This document shows, piece after piece, positions 13,885-49,402 of a stretch of DNA of 64,000 nt; the stretch's first letter is position 1; each line of letters opens with the position of its first letter. Under the pieces are notes generated by a model. It was given only the letters and a program-made list of their open reading frames with translations, searched no databases and had not been told where the DNA came from. The DNA comes from Candidatus Syntropharchaeum sp. (GTDB lineage: Archaea; Halobacteriota; Syntropharchaeia; Syntropharchaeales; Syntropharchaeaceae): assembly GCA_026134025.1 (NCBI GenBank), contig JAOQII010000004.1, forward strand, positions 19,409 to 83,408. The letters run 5' to 3'. A program made the translations under genes and the position numbers.

Positions 13885-14088
13885 GCCTTATCCCGGTAAT
13901 CGTCGATATATTCTTCTCCTGCATCACAACACCGATCGTTGAAGAGGCACACTCGATCATCGGCTCTCTGAGTGAAACAACAATAAATTGCGCGCTCTTT
14001 GATAACTTTTTGATCATCTTTGCGACCTTCTCGACATTCACACCATCGAGCATCATATCTATCTCATCCAGTGCATAGAACGGTGCTG
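13846..14088. repeat. Copy 1 of a perfect 243-bp direct repeat, a duplicate of the smc 3' end (last about 75 codons, antisense) placed downstream of and overlapping the rpoD 3' end
   Basis: Nucleotide identity with 15706-15948 checked by eye. The ORF track shows identical 69-aa (minus) and 65-aa (plus) translations at both sites. Confidence 0.9.
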
Positions 14089-14118
14089 TCTGAAAAGAGA
14101 ATAAATTAGAGATCTGTC

Positions 14119-14892: not shown

Positions 14893-14942
14893 TCATCTCA
14901 TCCCAAGTTCTTTAGACGTTTATTCTATTGAGAGATATCAAA

Positions 14943-15383
14943 TTATTCTTGCGTTAGGTATTCAAATGCACTGATATACTTGTATTTGATTACATTCTTG
15001 TATTTTGTTATCGTTCTTTCTTTTGCTACATCATGATACTTAGTTACCGTTCGTTGTTTAGCGACTTCGTGATACTTTGTGACTGTTCTCTCTTTTGGCA
15101 GATAAGTTACGACATATTGAAATTTGGAAGGTCGAAGTACTTCATAGGAGCAATTCAAAAATCTAGTACTATTAACCGTCCATTCGAATTGGTGGCTTTC
15201 ACCAGGCATCAAAAATACACTATCTGTTATAGCATTATATGATCGTTCAGTAGTTACTATATGGAAAACTACCTGAAACATTCCACCACTATCCTCTGTA
15301 TTCGTTATCATAACCATTAAATCAAGTAATTCGATAGACCCCAGTCCAGAGTACAACTTTAAAAAATGCTTATAAAAAACCAA
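14943..15383 (-). CDS. Hypothetical protein with C-terminal 11-aa tandem repeats (ERTVTKYHEVAKQ / RTVTKYHDVAKE / RTITKYKNVIKY)
   Basis: 146-aa ORF inside the repeat-flanked islet. Low GC. Confidence 0.35.
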   Translation of the reverse strand: MVFYKHFLKLYSGLGSIELLDLMVMITNTEDSGGMFQVVFHIVTTERSYNAITDSVFLMPGESHQFEWTVNSTRFLNCSYEVLRPSKFQYVVTYLPKERTVTKYHEVAKQRTVTKYHDVAKERTITKYKNVIKYKYISAFEYLTQE

Positions 15384-15421
15384 ACCCGATGTTTCATAAC
15401 TATATGGGATATTATCTGTGG

Positions 15422-15637
15422 TTAATTCTTTTTTTCATAATATGTTTCTACATCCTCATAAGGTTCCATTTCATAATATGTTTCTGTAGTTTCGTATGGC
15501 TCTGTTACATAATACGTCTCGGTCGCACTATATGGCTCCTTAACCGTGTAAGAGACTTCTATCACTGGCATAGATATTGCAACGCAAGCACACAATGTTG
15601 CCAATAAAGCACCTATTGCAATCCATTTCCTTTCCAT
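15422..15637 (-). CDS. Small secreted or membrane-anchored protein with triplicated EPY-x3-ETYY repeats
   Basis: MERKWIAIGALLATLCACVAIS signal-like N-terminus (internal Met of the 87-aa ORF), followed by KEPYSATETYYVTEPYETTETYYEMEPYEDVETYY. Confidence 0.35.
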   Translation of the reverse strand: MERKWIAIGALLATLCACVAISMPVIEVSYTVKEPYSATETYYVTEPYETTETYYEMEPYEDVETYYEKKN

Positions 15638-15705
15638 TTGTGAACCTCTAACTCTTTTTTTATTGATCCTATATAAAACTATCAATTCACATCTTAAGAG
15701 AAGCG

Positions 15706-15948
15706 GTCAGGCTGAAATCTGTGCTTGAGCGTTTTTCCCATTGAGCCTTATCCCGGTAATCGTCGATATATTCTTCTCCTGCATCACAACACCGATCGTT
15801 GAAGAGGCACACTCGATCATCGGCTCTCTGAGTGAAACAACAATAAATTGCGCGCTCTTTGATAACTTTTTGATCATCTTTGCGACCTTCTCGACATTCA
15901 CACCATCGAGCATCATATCTATCTCATCCAGTGCATAGAACGGTGCTG
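15706..15948. repeat. Copy 2 of the 243-bp direct repeat (the native 3' end of smc)
   Basis: Identical to 13846-14088 and contiguous with the smc body. Confidence 0.9.
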
Positions 15949-18900
15949 GCCTGTATCTCTGGATTGCAAAAAGAAATGAGAGTGCTGTAAGACTTTTTTC
16001 ACCACCAGATAGTGCTTCTAATCGTTGAATAGGTTTTCCTGCTGGCTGAACCTGAATCAACAGACCTCCTTCAAATGGCTTTTCTCGAGATTCAAGCAAT
16101 ATCTCACCATTCCCATCAGAAAGCTCTCTGAAGACTTCTTTGAAGTTTGCATTTATCGCATCAAAGGTTGAGAGGAAGACTTCCCGTTTTCTCATCTCAT
16201 ACCCCTCGATCCGCTCGATGATCGCACGCCGCTCATTTGAGAGTGTATTTCTTCGCTGCATTAGCTCATCAGACCGTGATTCAACCTCAAAAAACGCATC
16301 TATCGCCTTCATATTTACAGGCTCGAGTGCACGCATCCTCTCTTCAATTCGCTTAATCTGCTCTCTGATCGTATCATGATCTTCTCTAACCTCTCCCTCT
16401 GGATCGATCCCTGCTTCATCGATCCTGCGTTTTAGCTCTGTAATCTGCGATACGAGTCCTTCTTCGATCTTACGAAGATCTGTTAGTGCGCCATCGATCC
16501 GTTCACGTCTTAATTTCAATCCCTCAATCTCCTCACGGAGTTCCATGACCCGACTGAAACGCTCTTTGAATAGATTTTTAAGCTTTGAAAGCTCCTCTTC
16601 CAGTGCCTTCTCGCGTTCAAGAAGTTCTTCGCGTTCGCTCTCAAGTTCTTTGATCCTGAAGATATTATCCTTTATCTCATCGTTTATGCCCGAAAGGCTT
16701 GCATCCAGCGCTTTTAATCGGTCTTCTCCCTCAGCTATCTTCTTCTCAAGATACTCTCGATCGAGCGTGATTGACTTGATTGAGAGGTCAATCTCGCCCA
16801 TCCTACCTTCGATCATCCTTATCTCCTCGGAGATTTGACGCTCCTTCTTTGTAAGTTCGGGTATCTTCGATGCCTTCAGATCTGATTCAAGCTCACCGAT
16901 CGCTGATTCAAGCTCACTTATTCGCCTTCCTGATGCAGCGAGTGCCTCCTCAAGCTGGATAATTTCAGCCCTGTTATCCTCCTTCTCAAATCTTTCAAGC
17001 TCACGCCTGAGATCGTTCAGGTTACGTTCGCTCTCTTTCTTCTCAATCTGCAACTTATTCAGGATACTCCCCTCTTCAAAGAGATCCTCGCGAATCGTTG
17101 CGTTCCGATTCTCAAGCGCCTTTATTCGTTCAAGATGCATCTTAAGCTCTGATTCAAGGACTGTTCTCTCCTCCTGAAACTTCAGAAGCTCATTTCCTGT
17201 GCTACTTGTGAACCTGAACCGTGATTTTAAGGGTGCACCCCCTGTCATGATACCGCTTCGCTCTATAAGATCTCCATCGAGCGTAACAGACCTGAACCGA
17301 TCCATCAATCGCCTTCCATCCTCAATCGATTCAACAACCACTGTATCCCTGAAGACGTGCCAGAACGCCCGCTCGAATTTGGGATCATACTCGATCAAAT
17401 CGATCGCAAATCCAAGAACGCCTGGATAATCAAGTCCATCCAGTTTTCTCCCATCTTTAAGCTTGTTCAGAGGTAAAAATGTTGCACGCCCCTTCTTGAT
17501 CTGTTTCAGGTACTCGATCGCGTACTGTCCATCGATATCTGTCTCAACAACGATGTACTGCATTTTCCCTCCTGCTGCAGCCTCAAGCGCAACCGCAAAA
17601 CGATTTTCTACCCTTCCAAGCTCAGCAATCGTTCCATAAACCCCCTCAAGCTGATGCATTCTCACAGCTTCCATAACAGACTTAACACCCTCGCTATACC
17701 CTTTGAATTCCTTTTCTGCGAGTACACGGGCCTCTATTTCCATTATCTTCCGCTCTAAAGCTTTGAGATCTTTCTCACGGCCATTCAGCAACGTGCGCTC
17801 TTCACCAAGCACCTTCTCATTCTCCTCAAGTTCCCTGGATAGCTCATGCGTTCTCTTTGCTCTAAGTGAGATCTCTCTCTTCTTTGTATCAAGCTCTTTC
17901 GCAAGTTTTTTCATTCTTTCAGTTATCAAATCAATTTCACCAGATCTTCTTCGTGAACGGTCGAGTATCATATCCTGTTTCATCAGAATCTCGTTCTTTT
18001 TTGACTGCTCAACCTCAAGCTCTCTACGGAGGGTGTATAACCTGTGGGTCGCATCCTCTGCCTTAGATCCTGCAGACTCAATCTCCTTTTTTATTCCATC
18101 AAGGATCGCGGTCTTCTCATCCAGCGTCTCCTTCAAGCTTCCCTTTCGTATCCGCTCATCATCGAAGCGTTTTAATGTGTCTTCAAGCTCCTGACGGTTT
18201 GATTCAAGCTCTATGAAGATACTGTTCTTCTGTGTCTTTAGATCTTCTATCCGCTCTCTACCCAGCGATACAAGCTCTTTGAAACGAGTTATAGTGCCAG
18301 AAACTTCTTCGAGACTTTTTTTAATGGTTAACACTTCTTCTTCACGTTTTTTTACAAGCCGTACCTCGTCTTCATCAAGATCTGACTGTATATCCTCCAT
18401 CTGTGCTGTTTTATTTGAAATACCCCTTGATATAATCTCTTTCTTCTCCAATCTATCCTCTATTGAGCTTTTTATCTCATCAAACTCCTGCTCTTTGAGA
18501 TTGAGGTCTGCAAGAAGGAGAGACGCCTCACACCGTACCTTCTCCTCCTTGAGGTTTTCATACATAAGCGCCTGATCTCGTTCGGTCTGGAGGACTTTGA
18601 GACGGTTTTTAAGTTCTTCAAGGATAATATCGAGCCTCTCGATCCTTGATCGCACCTCATCAAGCTCATGATGCGCTCGCTCCTTCTTTTCATCAAACTC
18701 CGCCACGCCAGAGATCTCATCTATGATCTTTCGCCGCTCAAATGAACTCATATTGAGTATTCTGGTGACATCGCCCTGCATTATCACATTGTATGAGTTT
18801 GAGGTGATGAAAGACCTGCTCAGTATCTCCTGGATCTCTGAAAATGTGCACGGCTTCCCATTGATATAATAATAACTGTAATAACCGTTATCCGTCTTTT

Positions 18901-28175: not shown

Positions 28176-29441
28176 ATGCTGCAGGTTAAGGGTCTGATTC
28201 TGATACTTTTTTTGATCTTTCTCTCATTCTCGCTATGTTGTATCGAAGAGGATTCAGATTTAGAGATCTCAACACCTGCTGAAACAGCAATAGAAACACC
28301 GGTTGCCACACCCCAACTCACGCCCACCCCATCGCTCAACCTGACAGCGATCGTCGATAAGGTGGAGGAGGTTCGTGGGCTGAATCTCATCGCTGATATT
28401 CCACAGCGGGAAATTAGCAGAGAGGAGCTTGAAGAACGATACAACACAACCGAAAAAGCGAGTGATGATCCTGATGATATTCTATTAAAAGCCCTCTTCA
28501 TGGTCGAATGGGACGATGACCTTGACAGGGTTGAGGCTTCGTACAAATCGAGTACGGTAATGGCGTACTATGACATCGAGAATAAAGAGATGGTGATCGT
28601 CAGCGGGTATGAGGCTGAACTTGAAAAGATCTATGCGCACGAGTACACACATGTACTCCAGGATCAGCACTTCAACCTGACAGAAATCCTCAACCAATCG
28701 ACCTTTGATGGTCGCATGGCACGAGATGCACTGGTTGAAGGGGATGCACTCCTCACCTGTGATCTCTATCAGGGTAAGACGCCATCGGGTCTCGCGATGG
28801 GGGTAAGCAAGGTCTATGAGGACGTTACACGAAGGACGCTCGAGGCATTCAGGACATTTTCGCATACCAGGGGTAAGTTCTTTGTGACCCAGCTCTATAA
28901 TGAGGGTGGTGGCTGGGAGCTTGTAAATGAAGCATATCGTAATCCACCGAGAACAACAGAGATGATAATGCACCCTGATAAATACACAAAAGGTGAAGAG
29001 GGAGTTAATATGTCAGCACCAGATCTCTTGCTGGATGGGTGGAATATGACGATCAACGATACGATGGGTGAGTTATTCATCCGTACAATGCTTGCTGATC
29101 ACATTAAATCGAGCAACGCATCCACATCAGCTTCAGGCTGGGGTGGAGACAGGTTAGTTCTCTATCAGAACGAGACTGACTACCTCTTTTGCTTCAATAT
29201 AAGCTGGGACAGCCCGATGGATGCAGATGAGTTTCTTGAAGGGTACAGAGAACTGATGAGATCTGTTAACGGGACGAAAATTGTTGATGAGAACGATTCT
29301 GTTGAGTGGGTGGTTGATGAGAATGAGTGGGTCCTGCTCCTTGAAATCAACGATTCTCTCAATCGAACGGTTCTTGCAGGATCATCCAACCCAGGAGTTC
29401 TCAATGAGCGTATGGAGGTTCTGGTGAATGGAGCTTGCTGA
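28176..29441 (+). CDS. Secreted putative zinc metallopeptidase (HExxH) with Thr/Pro-rich linker
   Basis: Signal peptide, TPVATPQLTPTPS linker, HEYTHVLQDQH zinc-binding motif, multiple N-glycosylation sequons (NxT/S). Confidence 0.5.
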   Translation: MLQVKGLILILFLIFLSFSLCCIEEDSDLEISTPAETAIETPVATPQLTPTPSLNLTAIVDKVEEVRGLNLIADIPQREISREELEERYNTTEKASDDPDDILLKALFMVEWDDDLDRVEASYKSSTVMAYYDIENKEMVIVSGYEAELEKIYAHEYTHVLQDQHFNLTEILNQSTFDGRMARDALVEGDALLTCDLYQGKTPSGLAMGVSKVYEDVTRRTLEAFRTFSHTRGKFFVTQLYNEGGGWELVNEAYRNPPRTTEMIMHPDKYTKGEEGVNMSAPDLLLDGWNMTINDTMGELFIRTMLADHIKSSNASTSASGWGGDRLVLYQNETDYLFCFNISWDSPMDADEFLEGYRELMRSVNGTKIVDENDSVEWVVDENEWVLLLEINDSLNRTVLAGSSNPGVLNERMEVLVNGAC

Positions 29442-29703: not shown

Positions 29704-29766
29704 GATAATTTTTCTCATCGCAATCTATTTATATCATACACAAAGAAGATTTATGAGGTATGGAGT

Positions 29767-30726
29767 GTGAATCATAGTATTATCGTACTTGGGTTTGTTA
29801 TAGTTCTGGCTTTAAGTGTGGGTAGCGCGGGTGCGACTGAGATATGGGTGCCTGATGATTATTTGACAATTCAAGCAGCGGTGAATAGCGCTTCAGCGTA
29901 TGATACAATAATTGTTAAAGATGGGACATATACAGAGAATGTTCGTGTTAATACGGCTCATCTAACGATCAAGTCTGAGAATGGGTCTGGTTCAACAATG
30001 GTCCAAGCAGCAAGTTCAAACGATCATGTCTTTGATATAACCGCGAACTATGTGAATATCAGCGGGTTTACGGTGACGGGGGCAACATCAGGCACATGGA
30101 CCACTGGAATTCGAGTTAATAATGCTGATTCTTGCACGATATCTGAAAACAACGTAAATGGCAATAGGCACGGAATACGTCTTTCAGGTTCGAGCAGTCA
30201 GAACATAATCAGAGATAACACGGTAAGTTCAAACGAGAAGTATGGTGTTTACCTAAGCTCTGACTCAACCGATGAGAACGAGATCATCCAGAACACGCTG
30301 GCTTCAAATGAAGCAGGGGTTTATATCAATAATGCAGACTATAACAACATCTCCTGCAACTACATCTTCAACAACAGCTACGGCATCTATCTCAAAGCTG
30401 GATCGACAGATAACACGATCAAACACAACAACATCATCGCAAACGGTGAGCTACAAGATGATGGTAGTTACCACTGGCAGTTCTACAACGACCAGGAGGA
30501 GGATGTCAGTGCGACCAATAACTGGTGGGGCACGACCGATGACGACCAGATCAACGCGAGCATCTATGACTGGCATGATAACTCAGAAAAAGGTAATGTT
30601 ACGTATCTCCCGAAGCTCGGTGGGCCATCCTCGTGCGCTGAGATCCCTGAACCCCTCACGCTTGTGATGGTCACGCTGGGGATTCTTGGGGTGATCGGGG
30701 CTGTTTACAGGAAGAGAGAGCGGTGA
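29767..30726 (+). CDS. Secreted right-handed parallel beta-helix (NosD/PbH1-like) repeat protein with C-terminal PEP-CTERM-type sorting signal
   Basis: Signal peptide, tandem about 22-aa beta-helix repeats (NNVNGNRHGIRLSGSSSQNIIRDNTVSSNEKYGVYLS...). C-terminus IPEPLTLVMVTLGILGVIGAVYRKRER has the PEP motif, a TM helix and a basic tail. Confidence 0.65.
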   Translation: MNHSIIVLGFVIVLALSVGSAGATEIWVPDDYLTIQAAVNSASAYDTIIVKDGTYTENVRVNTAHLTIKSENGSGSTMVQAASSNDHVFDITANYVNISGFTVTGATSGTWTTGIRVNNADSCTISENNVNGNRHGIRLSGSSSQNIIRDNTVSSNEKYGVYLSSDSTDENEIIQNTLASNEAGVYINNADYNNISCNYIFNNSYGIYLKAGSTDNTIKHNNIIANGELQDDGSYHWQFYNDQEEDVSATNNWWGTTDDDQINASIYDWHDNSEKGNVTYLPKLGGPSSCAEIPEPLTLVMVTLGILGVIGAVYRKRER

Positions 30727-30749
30727 TATTTCTTCTTTTCTTTTTACCG

Positions 30750-31160
30750 TCAGATCCTATCGAGTATCTCCCGTAGCTGGTCGATCTCAAGCTCCTGTCT
30801 GTGGCGCTCGTCCTCCCACAGTTTTCTGTAGAAGTAGAGGTATTCATAGAGTGCTGGCAGGTCTCTGCAGAAGATGATTCTGTGGTTTTCTATGATCTGG
30901 GCTTTCATGTAGAGTGGTAGTTCTTCAAAGAGCCATATATCGTATGGTTCACTGGTATCCAGATTTTTCCATGTATCTGCCAGGATTCTGCTCATCTCAT
31001 CTGGATCTTTTATCTTTGGTGCAACGATGGCGATGTCCAGATCACTTCTGCACGTGGATTCGCGCTTTGTTGTTGAGCCAAACTGGAGCAGCGCGAGGAT
31101 TCGCTGATCTTTCTGTAGCCATAAGCCTGATGCTATCGATCCAGCGCTCTCTTCAGCCAT
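30750..31160 (-). CDS. Minimal nucleotidyltransferase (MntA-type antitoxin, Pol-beta superfamily)
   Basis: GS-x9-DxD motif (FGSTTKRESTCRSDLDIAIV). Overlaps the upstream HEPN gene by 28 nt. Confidence 0.7.
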   Translation of the reverse strand: MAEESAGSIASGLWLQKDQRILALLQFGSTTKRESTCRSDLDIAIVAPKIKDPDEMSRILADTWKNLDTSEPYDIWLFEELPLYMKAQIIENHRIIFCRDLPALYEYLYFYRKLWEDERHRQELEIDQLREILDRI

Positions 31161-31570
31161 TCCGTCACCACATCGATGAAAGTTTCCGTGTGAGGCAGGA
31201 GTTTTTCGATCGAAATAAAGGCAATTTCAGGGTTTAGACCATTGTATCCGTGTATCAATCTGTTTCTAAGCCCATTTGCCTCGTTCAGGGTTTCTTTAAG
31301 CTTTTTGTCGATCACACCATGCTCGTAGAGGATGTTGATATTGGTGTAATCATCCTTCGGGAGTTTTCCCTCATCTTTTAAGATCATTGCAAGAATGTCT
31401 GTTGAAGCTTCCACGATCTCCTGCATCGCTTTGTAGATCGCAAGCCTTGTTTTCTTATCGATATTTTCTTTTGTATCGGTTTCACGCATCCATCTGTTTA
31501 TATCTTCACTCCGCTCCTTTATGTGATCTATTTTATCGATGTATCTTCGAACCCTCTCTTTCTCCATCAT
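31133..31570 (-). CDS. HEPN-domain toxin (HepT/DUF86 type)
   Basis: R-x4-HGY motif (GLRNRLIHGY) near the C-terminus. 145 aa. Operonic with the MNT gene. Confidence 0.75.
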   Translation of the reverse strand: MMEKERVRRYIDKIDHIKERSEDINRWMRETDTKENIDKKTRLAIYKAMQEIVEASTDILAMILKDEGKLPKDDYTNINILYEHGVIDKKLKETLNEANGLRNRLIHGYNGLNPEIAFISIEKLLPHTETFIDVVTEWLKRALDR

Positions 31571-31693
31571 TCCATCATTCTACTGGCTGATAGATAAAGC
31601 TTACCGCTGGATCGAGAAGATCAGAGGAAAAGACTAAAAGATACAAATTCACACATCAGGTATATATACTTCCACATGAAAGATCAATAGACG

Positions 31694-31924
31694 ATGATCG
31701 CGATGGCAACGCCAACAGTCATATCTGCGATTGGGGGAAGCGAGCTTGGCGTCTATGCCGTGCTGCTCCTCATTGGTCTTCTATCGGCTGCAGAGATTCT
31801 TGGTGCAGAACCTGATATCAGAAAGCGATTTGCTCCGTTCATGGAAGCTTATAATGCCATTGTGGTACCGCTCCTATTTGTATTCTCGTTGATTGTCTTA
31901 ACAAGGGTGCTCATGATTCTCTGA
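31694..31924 (+). CDS. Small hydrophobic membrane protein (hypothetical)
   Basis: 76-aa ORF with two predicted TM helices. Weak support. Confidence 0.3.
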   Translation: MIAMATPTVISAIGGSELGVYAVLLLIGLLSAAEILGAEPDIRKRFAPFMEAYNAIVVPLLFVFSLIVLTRVLMIL

Positions 31925-31939
31925 TATTTTTTGTGCGAT

Positions 31940-32680
31940 TTACATCCAGATTGGACAGATGACGAGGTAAAAAATATTAAGGAGAGCGTGAGAGATGAGA
32001 ACACCCGCGATGCTCCCGCTCTTTGATACCACATACCCGAAGAAGATCGAGGTCAGGAATACAAGCAGAATGAGCCACAGCCCTGATGCATAAGAGACAA
32101 AGAATGTGGCATAGAGGGTTGATGTCAGAAGGATCGCAAAAAGGGGGTTTTTCATAGCTCTTTCAACCGATTGCTGGATGATACCCCTGAATATAAGCTC
32201 ATCTGTGAATGCAGCAAGCATGAGGATCAATGATGCAGGGATTGGTGTTCCAGGTCCCGATGGCATGAGTAGCATCCATTCGAGATATCCGATAAAGGGA
32301 CCTGCAATGATGCATACTATCTGCAATATAGGATCTCTCAAAAGCATGCCCACCTCTTCGAGTGATATTCCAAGTACCGTGATCAGAATCAGCGAACCAG
32401 CAAGGAGTGAGATCGTTACCGCTATAAGATACCCCTCGTACGTGATGAGCTCAACAGGGATTGAGAGTGTTATGATACGATAAAGAGGAATGAGCGTCAT
32501 CACCTGGAAGAGGCGGGTAAAATCTGAAGAGAGGTCTTTTATGAAGGTGAACTGGAGGATCAAAAGTAATAAGATTGCGATATTGGATGTGATGCCAGCC
32601 TTCGGACCTGCGAAACATGTTGAGACCTCAGCGAGGATAATCAAGAGCGAGGTAAGTATCAGATGAGATACGGGTCGCAT
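31940..32680 (-). CDS. CPBP-family intramembrane metalloprotease (CAAX protease/Abi domain)
   Basis: Polytopic membrane protein with CPBP motif 1 (FTDELIFRG, EExxxR-like) and motif HxxxN (SHALLN). Confidence 0.75.
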   Translation of the reverse strand: MRPVSHLILTSLLIILAEVSTCFAGPKAGITSNIAILLLLILQFTFIKDLSSDFTRLFQVMTLIPLYRIITLSIPVELITYEGYLIAVTISLLAGSLILITVLGISLEEVGMLLRDPILQIVCIIAGPFIGYLEWMLLMPSGPGTPIPASLILMLAAFTDELIFRGIIQQSVERAMKNPLFAILLTSTLYATFFVSYASGLWLILLVFLTSIFFGYVVSKSGSIAGVLISHALLNIFYLVICPIWM

Positions 32681-32817
32681 GATATATCTTTATTCAGGCT
32701 CACTTAAACGATTGCGGGTGATGACAAAATGACATCCATGCTCGCATGATCACAAAATTTATATAGGGGTAATTAGAGAAGTAATTTGATTACACAGAGG
32801 TAAGTAGGCGATATGGT

Positions 32818-33486
32818 ATGAAGATGATTAGAATGGCACTGGTTGGAGTGCTTCTGATGATGGTGGTTATGCCGGCGGTTGGGGCTACATTCACGCTTGC
32901 TGATGAAGTGAAAAATTCGGTCGATAGCCAACCATATATCGTTATAGTTATGGAGCAGGGGGGTGGACCACCTGTTATACTAAAGCAAGGTGAGTCATAC
33001 GAGGTTCTTAGCGGCGTGCCTGTCAACTTCACGGCGGTATATATCTGGAAATGGCCTGGGAATGAGTTGAGTGATAATGAGATATTGGATATCGTACAAA
33101 GTGATGGAGAGACCATCAATAAATTTCAACAAAATACAGTTACTTCGCAAGCGTTCAATATAAAGAATATGTGGAAGGTGTATATCAATGAATCTACGGG
33201 TGACAGCACGGTATTAGGAGAAGGTGGACCATTGGATTTGAAGTGGAAATTCATACCGCGTTGCTACCTAGTTGGATGGACGCCGGCAGATAAAGTAAAT
33301 GAATACTATCCAGGCAAGGTTGGATCAACGTTTGATGTGACTGCAATGTGGAATAAATGGTGTTGGGGATCATCAATTCTTACAATAGAAGATATAGGTA
33401 TCGTCCCAGAACCCACCACTCTCGCCTTGACAGTCCTTGGCATCCTGGGCATTCTTGGATTTGTTAGAAGGAGAAGAGAGGCGTAA
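32818..33486 (+). CDS. PEP-CTERM-type sorting-signal protein (secreted)
   Basis: Signal peptide MKMIRMALVGVLLMMVVMPAVGA. C-terminus VPEPTTLALTVLGILGILGFVRRRREA. Confidence 0.65.
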   Translation: MKMIRMALVGVLLMMVVMPAVGATFTLADEVKNSVDSQPYIVIVMEQGGGPPVILKQGESYEVLSGVPVNFTAVYIWKWPGNELSDNEILDIVQSDGETINKFQQNTVTSQAFNIKNMWKVYINESTGDSTVLGEGGPLDLKWKFIPRCYLVGWTPADKVNEYYPGKVGSTFDVTAMWNKWCWGSSILTIEDIGIVPEPTTLALTVLGILGILGFVRRRREA

Positions 33487-33553
33487 CACGTATTATCACA
33501 ATGTTTATAACTGATAATGTGAGAGATGAAGTAATAATAGGAGGCGATATTGT

Positions 33554-34087
33554 ATGAAGACAATTAGAATGGCACTGGTTGGAGTGTTTCTGATGATGCT
33601 GGTTATGCCGGCGGTGGCAGCGTATAATATAGATATTTTCATGGATTGGAACCATGATGGTAATTTCGCGTGCGATGAAAGGCTTGTGCCAGGTGCTAAC
33701 TATACCGTTACGGCTGGTGTGGAGTATGATTTTATAGCCCACTTCTACGACTGGGGAGCGGACTCTTTTACATGGAATTTTGATGTTGGTGGACGCCATG
33801 ACGGTGAAGGGACAACATATCAGTATGGCGGGTACTGTAAGAATTGTAGCTGTTGCATGGATTGTGGCTGGTGGTCCAATGTATTATCCTATACCCCGGT
33901 GCTTGATGAGACCTTTGAGGTAAGTGCAGATTGCCTTGCCCATGGGATAACTGGATATTATGGTAGTACAAACGTAACGTTTGAAGCAGCAAGCATAACT
34001 GCCGTCCCAGAACCCACCACCCTCGCTCTAACAGCCCTTGGCATGCTGGGTGTTCTTGGATTTGTCAGAAGGAGAAGAGAGGCGTGA
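33554..34087 (+). CDS. PEP-CTERM-type sorting-signal protein, Cys-rich paralog
   Basis: Near-identical signal peptide (MKTIRMALVGVFLMMLVMPAVAA) and C-terminus (VPEPTTLALTALGMLGVLGFVRRRREA). Cys cluster YCKNCSCCMDCGWW. Confidence 0.65.
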   Translation: MKTIRMALVGVFLMMLVMPAVAAYNIDIFMDWNHDGNFACDERLVPGANYTVTAGVEYDFIAHFYDWGADSFTWNFDVGGRHDGEGTTYQYGGYCKNCSCCMDCGWWSNVLSYTPVLDETFEVSADCLAHGITGYYGSTNVTFEAASITAVPEPTTLALTALGMLGVLGFVRRRREA

Positions 34088-34097
34088 TCAACGCTTC

Positions 34098-35183
34098 CTA
34101 ACTCACGATCCTCAAGATATCACCATCTACAAGTGTGTGGGTCAGTCCTATACGCTGCCCCTCGTGCTTTGCAGATCGCCCCCAGACCTGTGCGTATTTA
34201 AAACTTCTTTTAAGATCACGATGTATCTTATCTGCCACATCAGCAACCGTAGCACCTGATTTTATGATAAGTGGATGCTCCATGTCTGCTTTCTTTCCAG
34301 GGGGCTTCATATAGATATGTATAAACCCAAGACCCCTGAATATCCGCTTCTTTAGCTCCTCCAGACCCTCTCCGGTCTCAGCAGAGATTAAAACAGCATT
34401 TGGTATTGTTCTTAATTGCTCAATCTCACGTCGATCTACGAGATCTATCTTGTTTATTATCCTCAATGACGGAATATAGAGCCTGTTTGCGAGGATTGCA
34501 TCGATCAATCGGTCGATCGTGAGATCTTCCCTGATTATAATATCTGCGTTGTGGATCTTATACTCTGAGAGAACTGTTTTTATCAGGGTCTCATCAAGCT
34601 GGACGTTTGGGGTTCTGTTAATCCTGATCCCACCTCGATCTTTCTTTATTATCCTCACATCTGGTGGAGCGAGGTTAAGCCTGATGCCTGCGTTGTAAAG
34701 CTCATGCTCGATCAATTCAAGCCGTTCAACCTCAAATACCGTCGTGAGAAGAAGGATCATATCTGCGGTTCTAACAACAGAGATCACCTCTTTCCCTCGT
34801 CCTTTCCCGATCGATGCACCCTCGATCAATCCTGGCACATCAACAAGCTGAATCTTTGCCCCCTGTATCTCCATCGCGCCCGGGATTACATCGAGCGTTG
34901 TGAAGTCGTATGCTGCAACCTCTGAGGTTGCGTTCGTGAACTTATTCAGGAGTGTGGACTTTCCCACAGATGGAGGGCCCACAAGTACCACTGTTGCATC
35001 CCCGGTCTTCTTCACCGAGTAACCACCGTGATGACTCTTTTTTGATGCTCTTTTGATCGCTTCGTCCCTGAGTTTAGCGAGCTTGGCTTTTAACTTGCCG
35101 ATATGGTGCTGGGTGGCTTTGTTATACGGCGTCTTTTTTATCTCTTCCTCGATCGCTCTGATTTCATCCTCTATTACCATCAT
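34098..35183 (-). CDS. DRG-family GTPase (Obg superfamily, C-terminal TGS domain)
   Basis: N-terminus IEDEIRAIEEEIKKTPYNKATQHHIGKLKAKLAKLR, G1 GPPSVGKSTLL, G3 DVPG, TGS-like C-terminus. Confidence 0.85.
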   Translation of the reverse strand: MMVIEDEIRAIEEEIKKTPYNKATQHHIGKLKAKLAKLRDEAIKRASKKSHHGGYSVKKTGDATVVLVGPPSVGKSTLLNKFTNATSEVAAYDFTTLDVIPGAMEIQGAKIQLVDVPGLIEGASIGKGRGKEVISVVRTADMILLLTTVFEVERLELIEHELYNAGIRLNLAPPDVRIIKKDRGGIRINRTPNVQLDETLIKTVLSEYKIHNADIIIREDLTIDRLIDAILANRLYIPSLRIINKIDLVDRREIEQLRTIPNAVLISAETGEGLEELKKRIFRGLGFIHIYMKPPGKKADMEHPLIIKSGATVADVADKIHRDLKRSFKYAQVWGRSAKHEGQRIGLTHTLVDGDILRIVS

Positions 35184-35250
35184 ACATCTATTGGCGCGCT
35201 TAGCTCAAAAAGTTTTTTAAGGTTTCATTGAGAACGCATCACGTGGTGGT

Positions 35251-36030
35251 TTGATGAAACAGGATGAGATCATTGATACGCTAAAAGCTCTTTTAGATTA
35301 TATAAACATCCACAGGGTCTTATCAGAAGAGGAATTACGCCTCAAGATAACCGAAGAGGTTTCAAAGATAGATGAGGAGAGGAGAAAAGAGATAGAGTAC
35401 AATCTTGGAGGGAATATGGAGGATCTTATATTTGAGAGCATTACGACACACGAGAAACTTTCTATAACCTCTCCAGATCTCCATGTCAAGATAAACTACC
35501 TTGGTGAGGTCTTCTACTGCCCGCCAAGCCATACATACATGGAAGCAGAGATCAAAGAAGCGTTCCTGCGCCTTGCGATGGGGCGTGTTGACTTTGAACA
35601 GTTCAAATCCGTGGTATCGAACTTCCTCGCCAGTGCGGGATATGAAATAGAGGTTAGAAATAATGAAGATGAGATTCTGGCAGCGAAAGATGGATTTGAG
35701 CCGCTCCGTGTACATCTTCTTCCCACGATAAATCTGGCAGCGAATAAACTTGAATCACTTGAAGGCGACGGGAACGTCCTTGTTGTTCCTACCGAGAAAA
35801 CACCATGGGCGTTTGTGAACTTTATTCATAACATGGATGATTACCAGATATCAAAGGATACAATGATATGGGTTGTAAACATCGGTAAAGGAACGGTAGA
35901 TCCTTTGATTGGCAATCCCACAGATGAAGATATAGCTTTGAGATTTGATAACCCGATGAGGGCAAGAAAAGCAGTTAAGATCTGGCGTGCATCCGCGCCT
36001 GGTGATAATTCGTTTCTTGGGTTGAATTGA
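35251..36030 (+). CDS. Hypothetical protein
   Basis: 259-aa ORF with no recognised motif. Confidence 0.35.
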   Translation: MMKQDEIIDTLKALLDYINIHRVLSEEELRLKITEEVSKIDEERRKEIEYNLGGNMEDLIFESITTHEKLSITSPDLHVKINYLGEVFYCPPSHTYMEAEIKEAFLRLAMGRVDFEQFKSVVSNFLASAGYEIEVRNNEDEILAAKDGFEPLRVHLLPTINLAANKLESLEGDGNVLVVPTEKTPWAFVNFIHNMDDYQISKDTMIWVVNIGKGTVDPLIGNPTDEDIALRFDNPMRARKAVKIWRASAPGDNSFLGLN

Positions 36031-36035
36031 ATCGT

Positions 36036-36497
36036 TCATTCGCGATCCAGAGCGATTATCATATCCTCTTTCAATATCCGAAGTACCATGTGTGACTTGA
36101 CCCGCGAAACCCCTTCAACCTGATTGAGCTTCCCCAGGTACGTGGCACATTCTTCACCCCTGCCAAAGCATCTTGACTTTACAACAAGATCGAAGTCACC
36201 TGTGACCTGATAGATGCAGCAAACCTCATGAAGCTCCCCGATCTTTGATGCAACACGTCTTGGGTCGTGATCGGATCCGACCTCCACCAGACTTATCATC
36301 GTATTCACACCTAAAACGGCATGATCAAGGATCGCTGTATAACCCTTTAAAATCCCACGCTCCTCAAGACGTCTTACACGCTCGCTCACCGTCGCAGTCG
36401 TTATCCCGATCTGTTCTGCGATTTTCCTGAAAGAGAGGCGCGCTTCACGCTGTAAGATCATCAATATCTTTCGATCAAGCTCATCGAGTTTCATCAT
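36036..36497 (-). CDS. Lrp/AsnC-family transcriptional regulator
   Basis: LDELDRKILMILQREARLSFRKIAEQIGITTATVSERVRRLEERGIL HTH plus RAM domain. Confidence 0.85.
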   Translation of the reverse strand: MMKLDELDRKILMILQREARLSFRKIAEQIGITTATVSERVRRLEERGILKGYTAILDHAVLGVNTMISLVEVGSDHDPRRVASKIGELHEVCCIYQVTGDFDLVVKSRCFGRGEECATYLGKLNQVEGVSRVKSHMVLRILKEDMIIALDRE

Positions 36498-37341
36498 TTC
36501 TCCTTTCTATCAGCGTTCCGACACCCTGATCTGTAAATAACTCAAGGAGGATCGAGTGTGGACGCTTCCCATCTATGATATGGCACTTGATGCCTGCCTC
36601 AACCGCACACAGGGCTGCGTCTACCTTCGGGATCATCCCACTTGCGATCACACCTTCATCGATCAACCTGAGGGCATTTTCTTTGGTTAAAGTTGGAATC
36701 AGGCTATCTGGATCACTGACGTCTTCTAAAACGCCACTGACATCTGTCAGAAAGAGAAGACGCTTCGCACCAATCGCAACTGCGATCTCACCTGCCACCA
36801 TATCTGCGTTGATATTGAGGCTGTTTCCCTCAGGATCCACACCGATCGGGGATACAACCGGGATGTAACCCTTACCTGCTGTGATCTCAAGAATCTCAGG
36901 GTTTATCGAGGTGATATTACCGACCCAGCCAAGCTCTTCGCTCTTCTTCTCACCCTCGATGAGCCTGCCATCCTTGCCAGATAGCCCTACGCCCTTTGCC
37001 CCGTACTTTCCGATCAGTGATACGATCTTCTGGTTGACGTTGCCAACGAGCACCATCCTTGTGATCTCAAGGGTCTCATCATCCGTGACCCGCAGACCTT
37101 TAACAAATGTGGGCTTCTTACCAAAGAGATCCATCTTCTCTGTGATCTCCTTCCCACCACCGTGAACGAGAACTGGCATGATCCCAACATAGCGAAGCAG
37201 GATAACATCCTTGACAAGATTCTCCATCAGTCTATCATCGACGAGTACCTCTCCACCCACTTTAAGAACCATCACTGATTTATAGAACTTCTGGATGTAA
37301 GGCAGCGCCTCGATTAAGATGTCCTCTCGCTTCAGGGTCAT
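36481..37341 (-). CDS. argB: Acetylglutamate kinase
   Basis: Amino-acid kinase fold: LIEALPYIQKFYKSVMVLKVGG, VLVHGGG, GKDGRL motifs. 286 aa. Confidence 0.8.
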   Translation of the reverse strand: MTLKREDILIEALPYIQKFYKSVMVLKVGGEVLVDDRLMENLVKDVILLRYVGIMPVLVHGGGKEITEKMDLFGKKPTFVKGLRVTDDETLEITRMVLVGNVNQKIVSLIGKYGAKGVGLSGKDGRLIEGEKKSEELGWVGNITSINPEILEITAGKGYIPVVSPIGVDPEGNSLNINADMVAGEIAVAIGAKRLLFLTDVSGVLEDVSDPDSLIPTLTKENALRLIDEGVIASGMIPKVDAALCAVEAGIKCHIIDGKRPHSILLELFTDQGVGTLIERRNDETR

Positions 37342-40281: not shown

Positions 40282-41181
40282 GTGAATGAAGACTTAACAG
40301 ATATATATACTAAGAACAAAATAAATTACATGGAATCAAACGCTAAGGATCTTCTGCTCGTAATTCTATTCACGTTTCTATGCATCCCATCTATCCTCAT
40401 CCCTTCCCTGTGTGAGACACCGATACGAGTCATACTCGGACTCCCGCTGATTCTTTTTTTCCCTGGCTATGCTTTGATCGCCGCACTATTTCCAGCAAGA
40501 GAAGATCTTGATATGATCGAACGTCTCGCACTGAGTTTTGGGCTCAGCATTGCTCTTGTGCCGCTTCTTGGGCTTGTATTGAACTACACGCCGTTCGGGA
40601 TCAGATTGATACCGATACTTCTCACCCTATCCGGATTTACGATCATCTTATCGCTTTTCGCATTCACCCGTAGGAGAAAACTTCCAGCGAACCTTAGATT
40701 CTCGGTTGATTTCAAATCATATTTTGCTGGATTGAAAGCGTCATTTACGAGAGAAAACAGGCTTGATCGCATCCTGACTATCCTTCTCTTCGCAGCAATC
40801 ATCATTGCAATCGCTATGACCGTATATGTCATCGTTACACCGAAAGAAGGTGAGCATTTTACAGAGTTCTATATTCTTGGTGCAAATGGTACTGCTGATG
40901 AGTATCCGACTGATCTGGCTGTCGGAGAGGAGGGAAAACTCATTGTAGGTATTGTAAACCATGAATATACCAACTATAGCTATCGTCTTGAGGTTAAATT
41001 CAATGAGAACGTACTTTATGAGGAGTTTATAACATTGTCACACAACGAGACATGGGAGCAACCCTTCTCGTTTCAAGCAGATAAAAGTGGAGAGGATCAG
41101 CGATTGGAATTTCTACTCTACAACAAGAGTGGAACTGAGCCTTACAGATCACTACATCTATGGGTTGATGTGCGTGAATAG
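40282..41181 (+). CDS. DUF1616-family archaeal membrane protein
   Basis: N-terminal 4-5 TM segments plus a C-terminal soluble beta-rich domain. Conserved PGYALI motif region. Confidence 0.5.
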   Translation: MNEDLTDIYTKNKINYMESNAKDLLLVILFTFLCIPSILIPSLCETPIRVILGLPLILFFPGYALIAALFPAREDLDMIERLALSFGLSIALVPLLGLVLNYTPFGIRLIPILLTLSGFTIILSLFAFTRRRKLPANLRFSVDFKSYFAGLKASFTRENRLDRILTILLFAAIIIAIAMTVYVIVTPKEGEHFTEFYILGANGTADEYPTDLAVGEEGKLIVGIVNHEYTNYSYRLEVKFNENVLYEEFITLSHNETWEQPFSFQADKSGEDQRLEFLLYNKSGTEPYRSLHLWVDVRE

Positions 41182-42241: not shown

Positions 42242-42736
42242 ATGAAAAAGCTTCGAATATCCTTTCTGGTCATTTTCTTACTGCTTTTATTCATTCCAGC
42301 CACTTTTGCAGGAACGATCGAGTGGCATACGTATGATGAAGGAATGAAACTTGCGGCTTCAGAGGGGGGGGTTGCGATGATCTATTTTCATTCCGATTCG
42401 TGCTACTACTGCAGACAGATGGAATCAACAACTCTCTCAGATCCCGAAATAATAGCTCTCTCAGGAAAGATGATCTGCATTGATGCAAACGGAGATCGTA
42501 ATCTCCTTGCAAGATACTACGTCAGAAGCTATCCCACGATTCTTTTTGTTGATCCAGATGGTGAGGAGATATTCAGGTTAATCGGCTACAGAGATCCACC
42601 TACCTTCAAAACTTATGTGGAGGCAATCCTTGAGGGTAATCCACCACCCACATCCACTGAGTCGCCTGCTTGTGGCGTTCTCATAGTGCTGGGTGTAATA
42701 ACTGGATTATGGATTTACCTGAGGCAAAATAGATGA
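42242..42736 (+). CDS. Thioredoxin-fold thiol-disulfide oxidoreductase, secreted with C-terminal TM anchor
   Basis: Signal peptide, CxxC (SCYYC) in a Trx-like context, YPTILFVD, C-terminal hydrophobic helix. Confidence 0.65.
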   Translation: MKKLRISFLVIFLLLLFIPATFAGTIEWHTYDEGMKLAASEGGVAMIYFHSDSCYYCRQMESTTLSDPEIIALSGKMICIDANGDRNLLARYYVRSYPTILFVDPDGEEIFRLIGYRDPPTFKTYVEAILEGNPPPTSTESPACGVLIVLGVITGLWIYLRQNR

Positions 42737-43395
42737 TAGAGCTTCCTGTACCCATTCTTTCATTTTTATTTGGTGTTTTAAGCATCTTCACTCCGTGTGT
42801 TCTCCCTGTAATCCCAATTATCGCAGCTTATGCAGTAAAAGCAGGGCGATTTGTGCCTCTGGCGCTTGCATGCGGCTTCTCAATCTCGTATTTTTTGATG
42901 GGGATTGTTGCATTAGCCTTTGGACAGATCATGTATTCACTTGGCGATCTTTTGTGGCGTGGGGCAAGCGCGATCATAATCATAATGGGCGTATATATCC
43001 TGCTCGAGGAGCGTTTATCACCCGATATTCTATCAAGGCTACCATCCTCTGGTCTTTTTGATCATTTAAGGGCAAAGATGGGGAGTGAGATCAACGGTGT
43101 TTTAGGGGGTCTTCTTCTTGGGGCAACACTCAGCATTGTCTGGATACCATGTACAGGGCCTATTTTAGGATCTTTTCTCGCGATGATAGCGATGGAAGCC
43201 ACGTCACTTTATGAAAATCCACTTTTACTCCTCCTGTACTCATCAGGAATGGCAGTGCCTTTTTTAGCAATCGCTTACGGGTCAAATCTTTTTGTAAACA
43301 GGGTGAAGAGCTTATCTTCTCATCTTCCAGCTATAAGAACCCTATCTGGCATCATATTGATCCTGACCGGGATCTATTTCTGGCTGAAACTCTGA
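42733..43395 (+). CDS. ccdA: CcdA/DsbD-family transmembrane thiol-disulfide electron transporter
   Basis: Two conserved Cys in TM1/TM4 (FTPCVLPVIP; WIPCTGPILG), 6 TM. Start overlaps the upstream Trx-like gene. Confidence 0.8.
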   Translation: MIELPVPILSFLFGVLSIFTPCVLPVIPIIAAYAVKAGRFVPLALACGFSISYFLMGIVALAFGQIMYSLGDLLWRGASAIIIIMGVYILLEERLSPDILSRLPSSGLFDHLRAKMGSEINGVLGGLLLGATLSIVWIPCTGPILGSFLAMIAMEATSLYENPLLLLLYSSGMAVPFLAIAYGSNLFVNRVKSLSSHLPAIRTLSGIILILTGIYFWLKL

Positions 43396-49356: not shown

Positions 49357-49402
49357 TTATAAAAGGAGATGGTCTGAGTATGAATAATTACGCAAGAGGT
49401 CT
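49357..49402 (+). repeat. 46-bp conserved element, copy A (ttataaaaGGAGATGGTCTGAGTATGAATAATTACGCAAGAGGTCT)
   Basis: 42/46 identity with 62488-62533. Begins with a TATA-like ttataaaa. Confidence 0.7.

Follow-up and report, generated by a model that had tools for sequence, protein, structure and literature searches.

The closest described systems are the bacterial EpsH/XrtA plus EpsI systems of Gram-negative, EPS-producing cells, in which cargo proteins carry a tripartite C-terminal signal of PEP motif, TM helix and Arg cluster (Haft 2006, PMC1569441). The 2006 survey found the PEP-CTERM system to be entirely missing from cells without an outer membrane, and reported four bacterial proteins in which EpsH is fused to a CAAX domain (PMC1569441). 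CPBP-fold membrane proteins that are genomically coupled to exosortases are represented by pepcterm_CAAX (TIGR03008) and the exosortase E-protease fusion (VPEID-CTERM, TIGR04162), and NCBIfam model names also couple CAAX-protease relatives with exosortases. C-terminal tripartite sorting in archaea is described for archaeosortase A and PGF-CTERM proteins of Haloferax volcanii and for ArtB-ArtE, with enzymes that are distant exosortase homologues (PMC6098224). Myxosortases (MrtX, MrtC, MrtP, MrtJ, MrtS and archaeal MrtA) are CPBP-fold proteases that cut tripartite signals containing a Cys, and are encoded beside genes for tripartite-tailed proteins. Staphylococcus aureus SpdC (with SagB), SpbR (with signal peptidase SpsB) and LnsB (with LnsA) are non-catalytic CAAX-protease homologues, and homologues whose motifs have degenerated serve as scaffolds or regulators of other enzymes of the envelope (PMC12260438; bioRxiv 10.1101/2020.05.21.109470).

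In this study, a locus was analysed in a 64-kb stretch of DNA (the window) from a MAG named 'Candidatus Syntrophoarchaeum sp.' (proteins MCW7076004-026). Candidatus Syntrophoarchaeum is a butane-oxidising archaeon. We consider it likely that this locus supplies the cargo and accessory half of a PEP-CTERM/exosortase system of bacterial type, hosted by an archaeon that oxidises alkanes, with a CPBP/p76 pair as accessory and not as sorting protease. A first-pass annotation had described six genes here, and the ORF list contains all six at the same coordinates, with the quoted tails and motifs; the p76 gene had been overlooked. The features are as follows.

29767-30726, + strand: beta-helix cargo, 319 aa, C-terminal end ...SSCAEIPEPLTLVMVTLGILGVIGAVYRKRER
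~30643-30723, + strand: tail of the beta-helix cargo, PEP-like tripartite, IPEPLTLV...YRKRER
30750-31160, - strand: MntA-type nucleotidyltransferase antitoxin, Polbeta 45.8 bits (cut-off 26.9)
31133-31570, - strand: HepT RNase toxin, NF047751 70.4 bits (cut-off 60), PF01934 83.7 bits
31694-31924, + strand: p76, 76 aa, two predicted TM helices, tail-to-tail (convergent) with the CPBP gene
31940-32680, - strand: CPBP/Rce1-fold polytopic membrane protein, 246 aa, AFTDELIFRG and SHALLN present
32818-33486, + strand: cargo c222, 222 aa, signal peptide and domain of unknown fold, C-terminal end ...IVPEPTTLALTVLGILGILGFVRRRREA
33403-33483, + strand: PEP-CTERM tail of c222
33554-34087, + strand: cargo c177, 177 aa, signal peptide and Cys-rich mature part, C-terminal end ...AVPEPTTLALTALGMLGVLGFVRRRREA
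34004-34084, + strand: PEP-CTERM tail of c177
40282-41181, + strand: DUF1616 membrane protein, PF07760 327 bits

The three proteins had been proposed to be secreted and to end in tripartite sorting signals, and an N-terminal signal peptide and such a tail are present in each. The curated PEP-CTERM models (cut-offs of 16 for TIGR02595 and 20.7 for PF07589) were passed by c222 (24.6 and 23.3 bits, respectively) and c177 (25.8 and 25.4 bits), and the beta-helix protein (13.8 and 17.7) was under both cut-offs though its tail is tripartite. A six-frame scan of the 64 kb for a hydrophobic stretch plus a basic C-terminus picked up no PEP tails beyond these three, which fall inside 4.3 kb. PGAP names c222 (MCW7076011.1) a 'PEP-CTERM sorting domain-containing protein'. 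The beta-helix protein has a NosD-like fold (PF05048 79.6 bits, PF13229 76.6 bits) and shares 82% aa identity with its orthologue in Ca. S. caldarius (locus L026); the orthologues retain a tripartite tail in which the motif is looser (VTEP in L026 and L037, VPEL in L001), and this protein is probably a cargo of the sorting system. The 5' and 3' ends of the c177 gene are 81-96% conserved at the nucleotide level with its paralogue and orthologue, the mature part shares ~18% aa identity with c222, and over its whole length the gene is 44% identical to its positional counterpart in L026.

It is very improbable that the tails are ordinary membrane anchors and that the CPBP gene clusters with them by coincidence or as a bacteriocin-plus-immunity style module, that is, a small Cys-rich secreted protein with a CPBP 'immunity' protein. 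CPBP/Abi proteins are classically tied to bacteriocin immunity (bioRxiv 10.1101/2023.06.07.544157), c177 and the cargo of Ca. Ethanoperedens GB50 are small, secreted and Cys-rich, and the low model scores of the beta-helix tail would fit a plain anchor; however, two tails lie above both curated cut-offs, conservation of the tail-coding DNA across paralogues and species is 84-96%, in contrast to divergent mature parts, and exosortase and EpsI genes lie no more than two genes away in four other lineages.

Within the 64-kb window, neither exosortase nor EpsI was found (tblastn E>1; the polytopic membrane ORFs all belong to other families), for the exosortase in agreement with the first-pass annotation, and an AglJ-like GT2 was not found there either. 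The gene order in L026 is DUF1616, beta-helix cargo, MntA, HepT, p76, CPBP, cargo, cargo, exosortase, EpsI and GT2, the last being an AglJ-like glycosyltransferase. Window positions 29718-32869 are 92% identical to L026 at the nucleotide level, and synteny ends at 34085, in the c177 stop codon. The c222 homologue in L026 is followed by a second cargo gene and then the exosortase, and in L023-L025 c222 homologues (35% identity, full length) stand directly 5' of exosortase and EpsI. The position of exosortase and EpsI directly after the last cargo gene in the sister species supports the reading of the locus as one of exosortase-type sorting.

An intact exosortase, MCW7076798.1 (P0095), was found on another contig and very probably belongs to the same MAG as the window, judging from the order of the accessions, the organism name, a sequencing run common to both and a 36-nt repeat that they share. 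Its accession comes from the block that includes the window proteins, and its organism name is identical to theirs, with OCU18_01745 in the window being approximately gene 349 and the exosortase approximately gene 1140; run SRR21418560 yields both the exosortase (L028) and, at 99.5% in the independent assembly L029, the junction of c177 with the GTPase gene of the window. A rearrangement in the window strain has very probably separated the exosortase/EpsI/GT2 block from the cargo genes and left it on another contig. P0095 scores 160.1 bits against TIGR02602 (cut-off 105.55) and has the invariant residues C178-S-G, R223 and H244. Identity as an archaeosortase was rejected: the enzyme scores only 16-22 bits against the models of archaeosortases C and D, compared with 150-162 bits for bacterial exosortase models. 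The sortase belongs to the EpsH class of bacterial-type exosortases (TIGR02602), and EpsI is a separate protein. Of the two types of cognate sortase that had been envisaged, the exosortase with intact Cys-x-Gly, Arg and His stood and the archaeosortase did not, and the earlier call of a bacterial-type PEP motif rather than the haloarchaeal PGF stands as well.

The archaeal system resembles bacterial EpsH/XrtA systems in its cargo signal, in an exosortase that passes the TIGR02602 cut-off with Cys-x-Gly, Arg and His present, in a separate EpsI gene immediately 3' and in being embedded among glycosyltransferase/EPS genes. It differs in that the host is an archaeon without outer membrane or periplasm, the exosortase fails to reach the XrtA equivalog cut-off (162 vs 208), no PrsK, PrsR or PrsT genes were seen, cargoes are few (three at the locus), a lineage-specific CPBP and p76 pair is present and, in the window strain, sortase block and cargo are not linked. 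Unlike archaeosortase systems, the motif is PEP and not PGF, PEF or VPXXXP. PGF-CTERM tails coexist in relatives (a cytochrome in L001 and an S8 peptidase in L023).

The CPBP protein scores 56.2 bits against PF02517 (cut-off 22.4), and both motifs claimed for it, FTDELIFRG and HALLN, were found. It retains motif 1 (D-E-LIF-R) and motif 3 (H-ALL-N), and the strict conservation of both speaks against full loss of catalysis. The motif-2 His is replaced by Phe, with YxxxF (Y190xxxF194) in place of FxxxH; this His bridges the catalytic water (PMC11980579). The structural neighbours are SpdC (best) and MmRce1. The protein is a small archaeal family of its own, always paired with p76, which has no Pfam or NCBIfam match and adjoins CPBP, always in tail-to-tail orientation, in every locus with sufficient sequence (L001, L003, L005, L006, L008, L021, L026, L030, L032-L039 and L042). 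The first-pass annotation had related the protein to the CAAX-type companions of bacterial exosortases. Neither TIGR03008 nor TIGR04162 matched it at E<=1, and membership of bacterial pepcterm_CAAX was ruled out; the link to exosortase genes is real, given the physical linkage in four other lineages, but the family is a different, archaeal one. Because of the missing model matches, the separate family, the p76 pairing and the motif-2 His loss, which set it apart from TIGR03008/TIGR04162 proteins, the association looks, from sequence, either independently evolved or very divergent.

It is improbable that CPBP is itself the sorting protease, myxosortase-like as in archaeal MrtA/CGP-CTERM, at least where no exosortase is adjacent. 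It is established that CPBP enzymes act as sorting proteases on tripartite signals (bioRxiv 10.1101/2023.06.07.544157; PMC11980579), no exosortase is adjacent in the window or in L001, the MYXO-CTERM model weakly matches the tails (14.0 and 16.1 bits; cut-off 20), and the best NCBIfam matches of CPBP are myxosortase models (MrtS 37.6, Mrt_core 36.7 and MrtJ 35.0 bits). These scores are far below the cut-offs (75-250), however, and are generic since unrelated out-group CPBPs score equally; assignment as a myxosortase was rejected on both grounds. Myxosortase signals have an invariant Cys, whereas the tails of c177 and of the 155-aa cargoes of L001 and L026 have no Cys near the motif. In addition, the catalytic motif-2 His is lost, a dedicated exosortase is very probably encoded in the same MAG and is adjacent in relatives, and the CPBP/p76 pair also occurs without any tripartite cargo nearby.

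The cargo/CPBP/p76 module recurs in Ca. Ethanoperedens, on an ANME-2-like Methanosarcinales contig and in another metagenomic lineage, often within polysaccharide loci. It stands beside exosortase and EpsI in Ca. Ethanoperedens GB50 and GB37 and in L021 and L030, in the last inside a large EPS cluster, and sister lineages have it directly next to an EpsH-class exosortase, EpsI and a polyprenyl-phosphate-sugar-synthase-like GT2. CPBP/p76 might instead act primarily in lipid-linked glycan/EPS biosynthesis and be tied to PEP-CTERM only via shared EPS loci; the pair could, for instance, bind an intermediate linked to dolichol or polyprenyl, as has been proposed for SpdC. We regard this as the less likely reading. 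The pair lies among GT2, GT4 and radical-SAM genes in ANME-2 HR1 (L008), Methanosarcinales SMBSF02 (L005) and L033, with no PEP cargo or exosortase in the available sequence, so its primary link may be to glycan/EPS synthesis. An AglJ/PpgS-like GT2 is directly beside p76 or EpsI in L005, L021, L026 and L030, and SpdC serves as scaffold for a glycan hydrolase and perhaps binds a prenyl carrier (bioRxiv 10.1101/2020.05.21.109470). On the other hand, CPBP/p76 is flanked by PEP cargo genes, without a glycosyltransferase, in the window and L001, and a PEP cargo is immediately 5' of CPBP in the window, L001/L002, GB50, GB37, L021, L026, L030, L043 and L049. Roles in glycan synthesis and in sorting are not mutually exclusive.

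The HepT/MntA pair was confirmed by its model scores, with MntA below the cut-off of NF047752 (45.5 bits against 60). Ca. S. caldarius carries both at the same site (95.6% aa identity for MntA and 98% for HepT); MntA is missing from L001, L003, L021 and L030, and HepT/MntA from the GoM_oil MAG, Ca. Ethanoperedens and other loci. A part in the sorting system was rejected on this distribution, and the pair is an unrelated, lineage-specific toxin-antitoxin passenger. The DUF1616 protein is possibly associated with the module, as its gene neighbours the module in relatives: in L026 (4698-5555) it adjoins the beta-helix cargo, and in L030 (12264-13148) it comes two genes past p76, after a GT2 gene. 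The window copy is located ~10 kb upstream of its L026 position and is inverted relative to L026.

Under the preferred reading of a divided PEP-CTERM/exosortase system, and by analogy with known families, Sec would export the cargoes and the C-terminal helix would hold them in the membrane; the exosortase, with its Cys-x-Gly, Arg and His, would recognise the PEP motif, cleave there and transfer the mature protein to an envelope or matrix acceptor. The CPBP/p76 pair would be an accessory factor of this step. Given the lost motif-2 His, CPBP may act as a scaffold without catalysis, as SpdC and SpbR do. We favour, only slightly, such a scaffolding or regulatory role of CPBP/p76 on the model of SpdC, SpbR or LnsB, possibly with binding of a prenyl- or dolichol-linked partner; alternatively, CPBP could retain some protease activity and remove cleaved tails. 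Unlike these staphylococcal proteins, only motif 2 is degenerate in CPBP, with motifs 1 and 3 invariant, and in place of a hydrolase or signal peptidase its putative partner would be the exosortase or p76. A lipid-linked glycan could itself serve as the acceptor to which the exosortase transfers its cargo. If this reading is true, a bacterial surface-protein sorting system would be at work in archaea without an outer membrane.

The six open reading frames proposed in the first-pass annotation, including the embedded HepT/MntA pair, were all found in the sequence with the C-termini and the CPBP motifs quoted for them. One further gene, p76, had been missed. The features of the locus, taken from the ORF listing in window positions, are as follows.

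29767-30726, + strand: secreted parallel beta-helix protein, tail ...CAEIPEPLTLVMVTLGILGVIGAVYRKRER
30750-31160, − strand: MntA nucleotidyltransferase (NF047752 45.5 bits, under the cut-off of 60; Polbeta 45.8, over 26.9)
31133-31570, − strand: HepT toxin (70.4 bits, cut-off 60)
31694-31924, + strand: p76, a 76-aa protein with two TM helices, its gene converging on the CPBP gene
31940-32680, − strand: CPBP membrane protein (246 aa) with motifs AFTDELIFRG and SHALLN
32818-33486, + strand: c222, a cargo protein of 222 aa, tail ...VPEPTTLAL...GFVRRRREA
33554-34087, + strand: c177, a Cys-rich cargo protein of 177 aa, tail ...VPEPTTLAL...GFVRRRREA

Three proteins had been credited with PEP-type sorting tails, and for the two small cargoes this was confirmed by curated models. 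The tail of c222 scored 24.6 with TIGR02595 (cut-off 16) and 23.3 with PF07589 (cut-off 20.7), that of c177 scored 25.8 and 25.4, respectively, and a signal peptide is visible in both ORFs. The beta-helix protein has the tripartite layout but scored under both cut-offs (13.8 and 17.7); this architecture is kept in its orthologues, but the motif drifts (IPEP, VTEP, VPEL). Its description as NosD-like holds for the fold, with generic parallel beta-helix repeats detected by TIGR03804 (59.5, cut-off 19.45) and PF05048 (79.6), but not for membership of NosD itself (TIGR04247, 88.1 bits against a cut-off of 300). A six-frame scan of the 64 kb revealed these three PEP tails only, all inside 4.3 kb, and c222 and c177 are already labelled by PGAP as 'PEP-CTERM sorting domain-containing protein'. 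Just upstream, positions 28176-29441 (+ strand) encode a secreted 421-aa protein that narrowly misses the Hvo_1808 family surface protein model (185 bits, cut-off 200).

The small cargo genes are conserved at their ends and divergent between them. The signal-peptide 5′ ends and tail 3′ ends are 81-84% identical between the window paralogues and 93-96% identical to the genes of Ca. S. caldarius (window 32818-34087 against 8764-9976 of locus L026), whereas the mature parts of c222 and c177 share approximately 18% amino acid identity. Whole-gene identity at orthologous cargo positions between species is 44-50% at the amino acid level, and at the second position the Cys-rich protein of the window differs from the protein common to Ca. 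S. caldarius and the GoM_oil Syntrophoarchaeum MAG. This combination suggests that the sorting ends act as constant adaptors for surface domains that change fast, and the pattern looks like a cassette-style turnover of those domains. Cysteine-rich cargo also occurs beside the exosortase of Ca. Ethanoperedens GB50 (L003 9354-9854), where the protein is very Cys-rich and has one CTLCH motif (CXXCH, haem-c-type) and a Cys directly before VPEP. Elsewhere in the window (42242-43395, + strand), the gene of a thioredoxin-like protein, TM-anchored at its C-terminus (...SPACGVLIVLGVITGLWIYLRQNR), overlaps the gene that follows it, which encodes a DsbD-type membrane protein; together they resemble a thiol-redox pair acting outside the cytoplasm, which may matter for the Cys-rich cargo.

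The statement that the window holds no exosortase or archaeosortase gene was borne out. With exosortase and EpsI of GB50 as queries, tblastn matches had E > 1 throughout the 64 kb, and a hidden sortase was rejected because every polytopic ORF fell into some other family (MacB/FtsX, P-type ATPase, DUF1616, DsbD, DUF63 and NuoH). Exact-sequence look-up identified the window proteins as MCW7076004.1 to MCW7076026.1 of a Candidatus Syntrophoarchaeum sp. MAG (tags OCU18_, 87,685 bp contig). Among the relatives, the nearest one that is informative is the MAG of Ca. S. caldarius (L026; LYOS01000001, 492 kb). It matches window 29718-32869 at 92.2% identity by blastn, and synteny breaks off where c177 ends (window 34085). 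Past this point the window has a convergent Obg-type GTPase gene where L026 has the exosortase. Misassembly at the repeated tail was considered as the cause and rejected, because an independent Logan assembly from run SRR21418560 (L029) spans 34046-36534 at 99.5%.

The same run also yielded L028, a contig carrying exosortase and EpsI. From its position 195 on (approximately 60 nt inside the exosortase ORF), this contig shares 97.6% identity with the genes of Ca. S. caldarius, and the sequence before that position differs. Its exosortase is MCW7076798.1, 'Candidatus Syntrophoarchaeum sp.'. With MCW7076004.1 being OCU18_01745 (approximately gene 349), MCW7076798.1 would be approximately gene 1140 of the same submission block, and it therefore lies very probably in the same MAG as the window, as judged from accession order, organism name, the shared sequencing run and the 36-nt repeat described below. 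A genome search for a sortase with the conserved Cys and Arg had been proposed as a check, and this protein very probably provides the answer: it passes the 8TM_EpsH model TIGR02602 (160.1 bits, cut-off 105.55), with the invariant Cys178-Ser-Gly180, Arg223 and His244 intact.

A 36-nt repeat, AGATGGTCTGAGTATGAAT(A/G)ATTACGCAAGAGGTCT, lies in intergenic positions of the window (49367-49402 and 62498-62533, + strand) and at positions 1-36 of L028, just upstream of the exosortase, at the point where the sortase block parts from the cargo locus. It was not found in the other 28 loci and could be a genome-specific intergenic element. In L026, positions 12900-17800, downstream of exosortase, EpsI and GT2, contain toxin-antitoxin fragments (Polbeta/HepT, ParE, HEPN) and a DDE transposase, and this plastic region may explain the moved sortase block in the strain of the window. 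A DUF1616 membrane protein lies near the module in three lineages (window 40282-41181, L026 4698-5555 and L030 12264-13148); in the window it is approximately 10 kb upstream of its L026 position and inverted relative to L026, which indicates a local rearrangement. The identity of the locus (92% at the nucleotide level, against 73% for DUF1616) might suggest a recent transfer between species, and this reading has to be weighed against other genes that are also at least 90% identical across Syntrophoarchaeum species. The HepT and MntA genes overlap at 31133-31160, as expected of a type VII toxin-antitoxin pair. Ca. S. caldarius carries both at the equivalent site with 95-98% conservation, no other lineage compared has them, and the pair is a passenger.

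By the curated cut-offs, the system belongs to the PEP-CTERM/exosortase class, and it is predicted to work like it. It is not XrtA proper, although XrtA is still the nearest named type: the equivalog model TIGR03109 (cut-off 208) gave 162.2 for MCW7076798.1 and 156.8 for the GB50 exosortase. Nor is it an archaeosortase system, since the sortases of this clade scored 18.6-21.6 with artC (cut-off 100) and 16.1 with artD (cut-off 125). The exosortase-adjacent EpsI genes scored 37.1 and 40.0 bits with TIGR02914, just under the cut-off of 42.8, and precomputed PF11984 (EpsI) matches are recorded for all of them.

In sister lineages, CPBP, p76 and cargo are physically linked to glycan genes, EpsI and an intact exosortase of the EpsH class. 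The order in Ca. S. caldarius (L026) is DUF1616, beta-helix cargo, MntA, HepT, p76, CPBP, 225-aa cargo, 155-aa cargo, exosortase, EpsI and GT2. EpsI, exosortase, a small PEP-CTERM cargo, CPBP and p76 occur together in Ca. Ethanoperedens GB50 (L003) and GB37 (L006), on the Logan contig L021 and on L030, a 37-kb Methanosarcinales contig whose module is embedded in an extensive GT4, GT2, aminotransferase, deacetylase and epimerase gene cluster. A full-length c222 homologue lies directly upstream of exosortase and EpsI in L023-L025. The GoM_oil MAG (L001) resembles the window: it has cargo, CPBP and p76, and it lacks HepT/MntA and an adjacent sortase. Its beta-helix cargo gene (2562-3529, − strand) is frameshifted, with the PEP-like tail (...CAVPELSTLLMVTIGLITLLGIVFRRKE) in another frame, which reflects either a pseudogene or an error in sequencing. 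Tails of the PGF-CTERM type were also observed in these relatives, on a multihaem cytochrome (L001 4977-6077, ...TPGFEVVICIGVLAIAAYLGKRR) and on an S8 peptidase of 1613 aa with PKD repeats right after exosortase and EpsI (L023 3266-8107). Sorting of the archaeosortase type and of the exosortase type therefore seem to coexist in these lineages.

The CPBP protein and p76 form a conserved pair. CPBP passes the PF02517 gathering cut-off, has an Rce1 fold and is labelled 'CPBP family intramembrane metalloprotease' by PGAP. Among 5.8 billion clustered proteins it has only 18 close homologues, and every one belongs to Syntrophoarchaeum, GoM-Arc1 (Ethanoperedens), ANME-2 or Methanosarcinales; a filter-free HMM search gave 9 representatives of the family at E ≤ 1e-30, and the family profile had no matches among PDB sequences. 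Wherever the sequence of a locus is long enough, as it is in nine short metagenome contigs too, p76 comes next after CPBP; the contigs of the metagenome scan were mostly too short for statistics on exosortase linkage. Motif 1 (D160-E161...R165) and motif 3 (H231...N235) are kept in CPBP, and motif 2 reads Y190xxxF194, with a Phe nearly invariant in the family at a position that is His in 69 of the 76 nearest out-group CPBPs.

The protein is neither a pepcterm_CAAX member nor a myxosortase. Membership of pepcterm_CAAX, a bacterial family that accompanies exosortases and that the first-pass annotation had in view, was not upheld, as TIGR03008 (cut-off 81.05) gave no match at E ≤ 1 for the window protein or its GB50 orthologue, within a search whose HMMER filters may hide very weak matches. 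The best NCBIfam matches were to myxosortase models (NF040914 Mrt_core, MrtX/C/P/J/S/A) at 35-38 bits against cut-offs of 75-250. Myxosortase signals need an invariant Cys. A myxosortase identity was rejected because these sub-threshold scores are generic and equalled by unrelated out-group CPBPs, Cys is not invariant in the tails and is missing from several, and motif 2 is lost. In active CAAX proteases all three motifs are present (PMC12260438), and the motif-2 His and motif-1 Glu bridge the catalytic water in MmRce1 and MrtX (PMC11980579). Judged by the combination of EExxxR, FxxxH and HxxxN/D, CPBP falls short, at motif 2, of what defines a catalytically competent protease. The Staphylococcus aureus homologues SpdC, LnsB and SpbR have degenerate motifs and serve, without catalysis of their own, to scaffold or regulate other membrane processing enzymes, signal peptidase among them (PMC12260438; bioRxiv 10.1101/2020.05.21.109470).

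From the established families, the cargoes would be exported by Sec and held in the membrane by the C-terminal helix, and the exosortase would recognise and cleave at the PEP motif and then pass the protein to an acceptor. The preferred reading for CPBP and p76 is an accessory function at the exosortase step, in a role slightly more likely to be non-catalytic than proteolytic. The main rival explanation is that the pair acts in lipid-linked glycan or EPS synthesis. In ANME-2 HR1, SMBSF02 (L005) and L033, the pair lies among glycosyltransferases with no PEP tail nearby in the available reach. A GT2 that resembles polyprenyl-phosphate sugar synthases (AglJ/PpgS/dolichyl-phosphate-hexose-transferase-like, 132-162 bits, sub-threshold) adjoins p76 or EpsI in L005 (9165-10169), L021 (1454-2584), L026 (11839-12870) and L030 (11002-12042); it was looked for in the 64-kb window and is absent there. 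Should the acceptor be a lipid-linked glycan, the accessory and glycan readings would become one. The host, as an archaeon, has no outer membrane, and the acceptor question is therefore sharper than in bacteria. One specific proposal, which we regard as improbable at present, is that CPBP and p76 form a non-catalytic adaptor that binds the polyprenyl- or dolichol-linked glycan of the adjacent GT2 and presents it to the exosortase, so that PEP-CTERM proteins would be transpeptidated onto lipid-linked or matrix polysaccharide. If true, this would reveal the acceptor step that has long been sought in exosortase sorting, and would do so in archaea that form syntrophic consortia.

The founding survey of PEP-CTERM/exosortase systems found no example in Archaea and described a trait of outer-membrane bacteria (PMC1569441), and a 2018 review of archaeal surface biogenesis covered archaeosortases only and treated exosortases as bacterial (PMC6098224). 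In the literature searched, no paper joined Syntrophoarchaeum with exosortase, no relevant paper joined PEP-CTERM with methanotrophic archaea, and none described the present system in either Syntrophoarchaeum or ANME; in one review on ANME, 'Exosortase, EpsH' appears only as tabulated InterPro counts for ANME genomes. Automatic annotation covers the individual parts; the system as a whole, the CPBP/p76 pair of archaea and its loss of motif 2 appear to be undescribed.

A bacterial-class exosortase and EpsI with PEP-CTERM cargo are conserved in several consortium-forming alkane- and methane-oxidising archaea, namely, Syntrophoarchaeum, Ethanoperedens and ANME-2-like Methanosarcinales. Their usual location inside EPS loci suggests that they help to build the cell envelope, or the matrix between cells, in syntrophic aggregates. 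These archaea offer a monoderm setting for asking what exosortases attach their substrates to, and the CPBP/p76 module, in which one catalytic motif is selectively lost, provides a compact and testable case for CAAX homologues that aid membrane processing enzymes.
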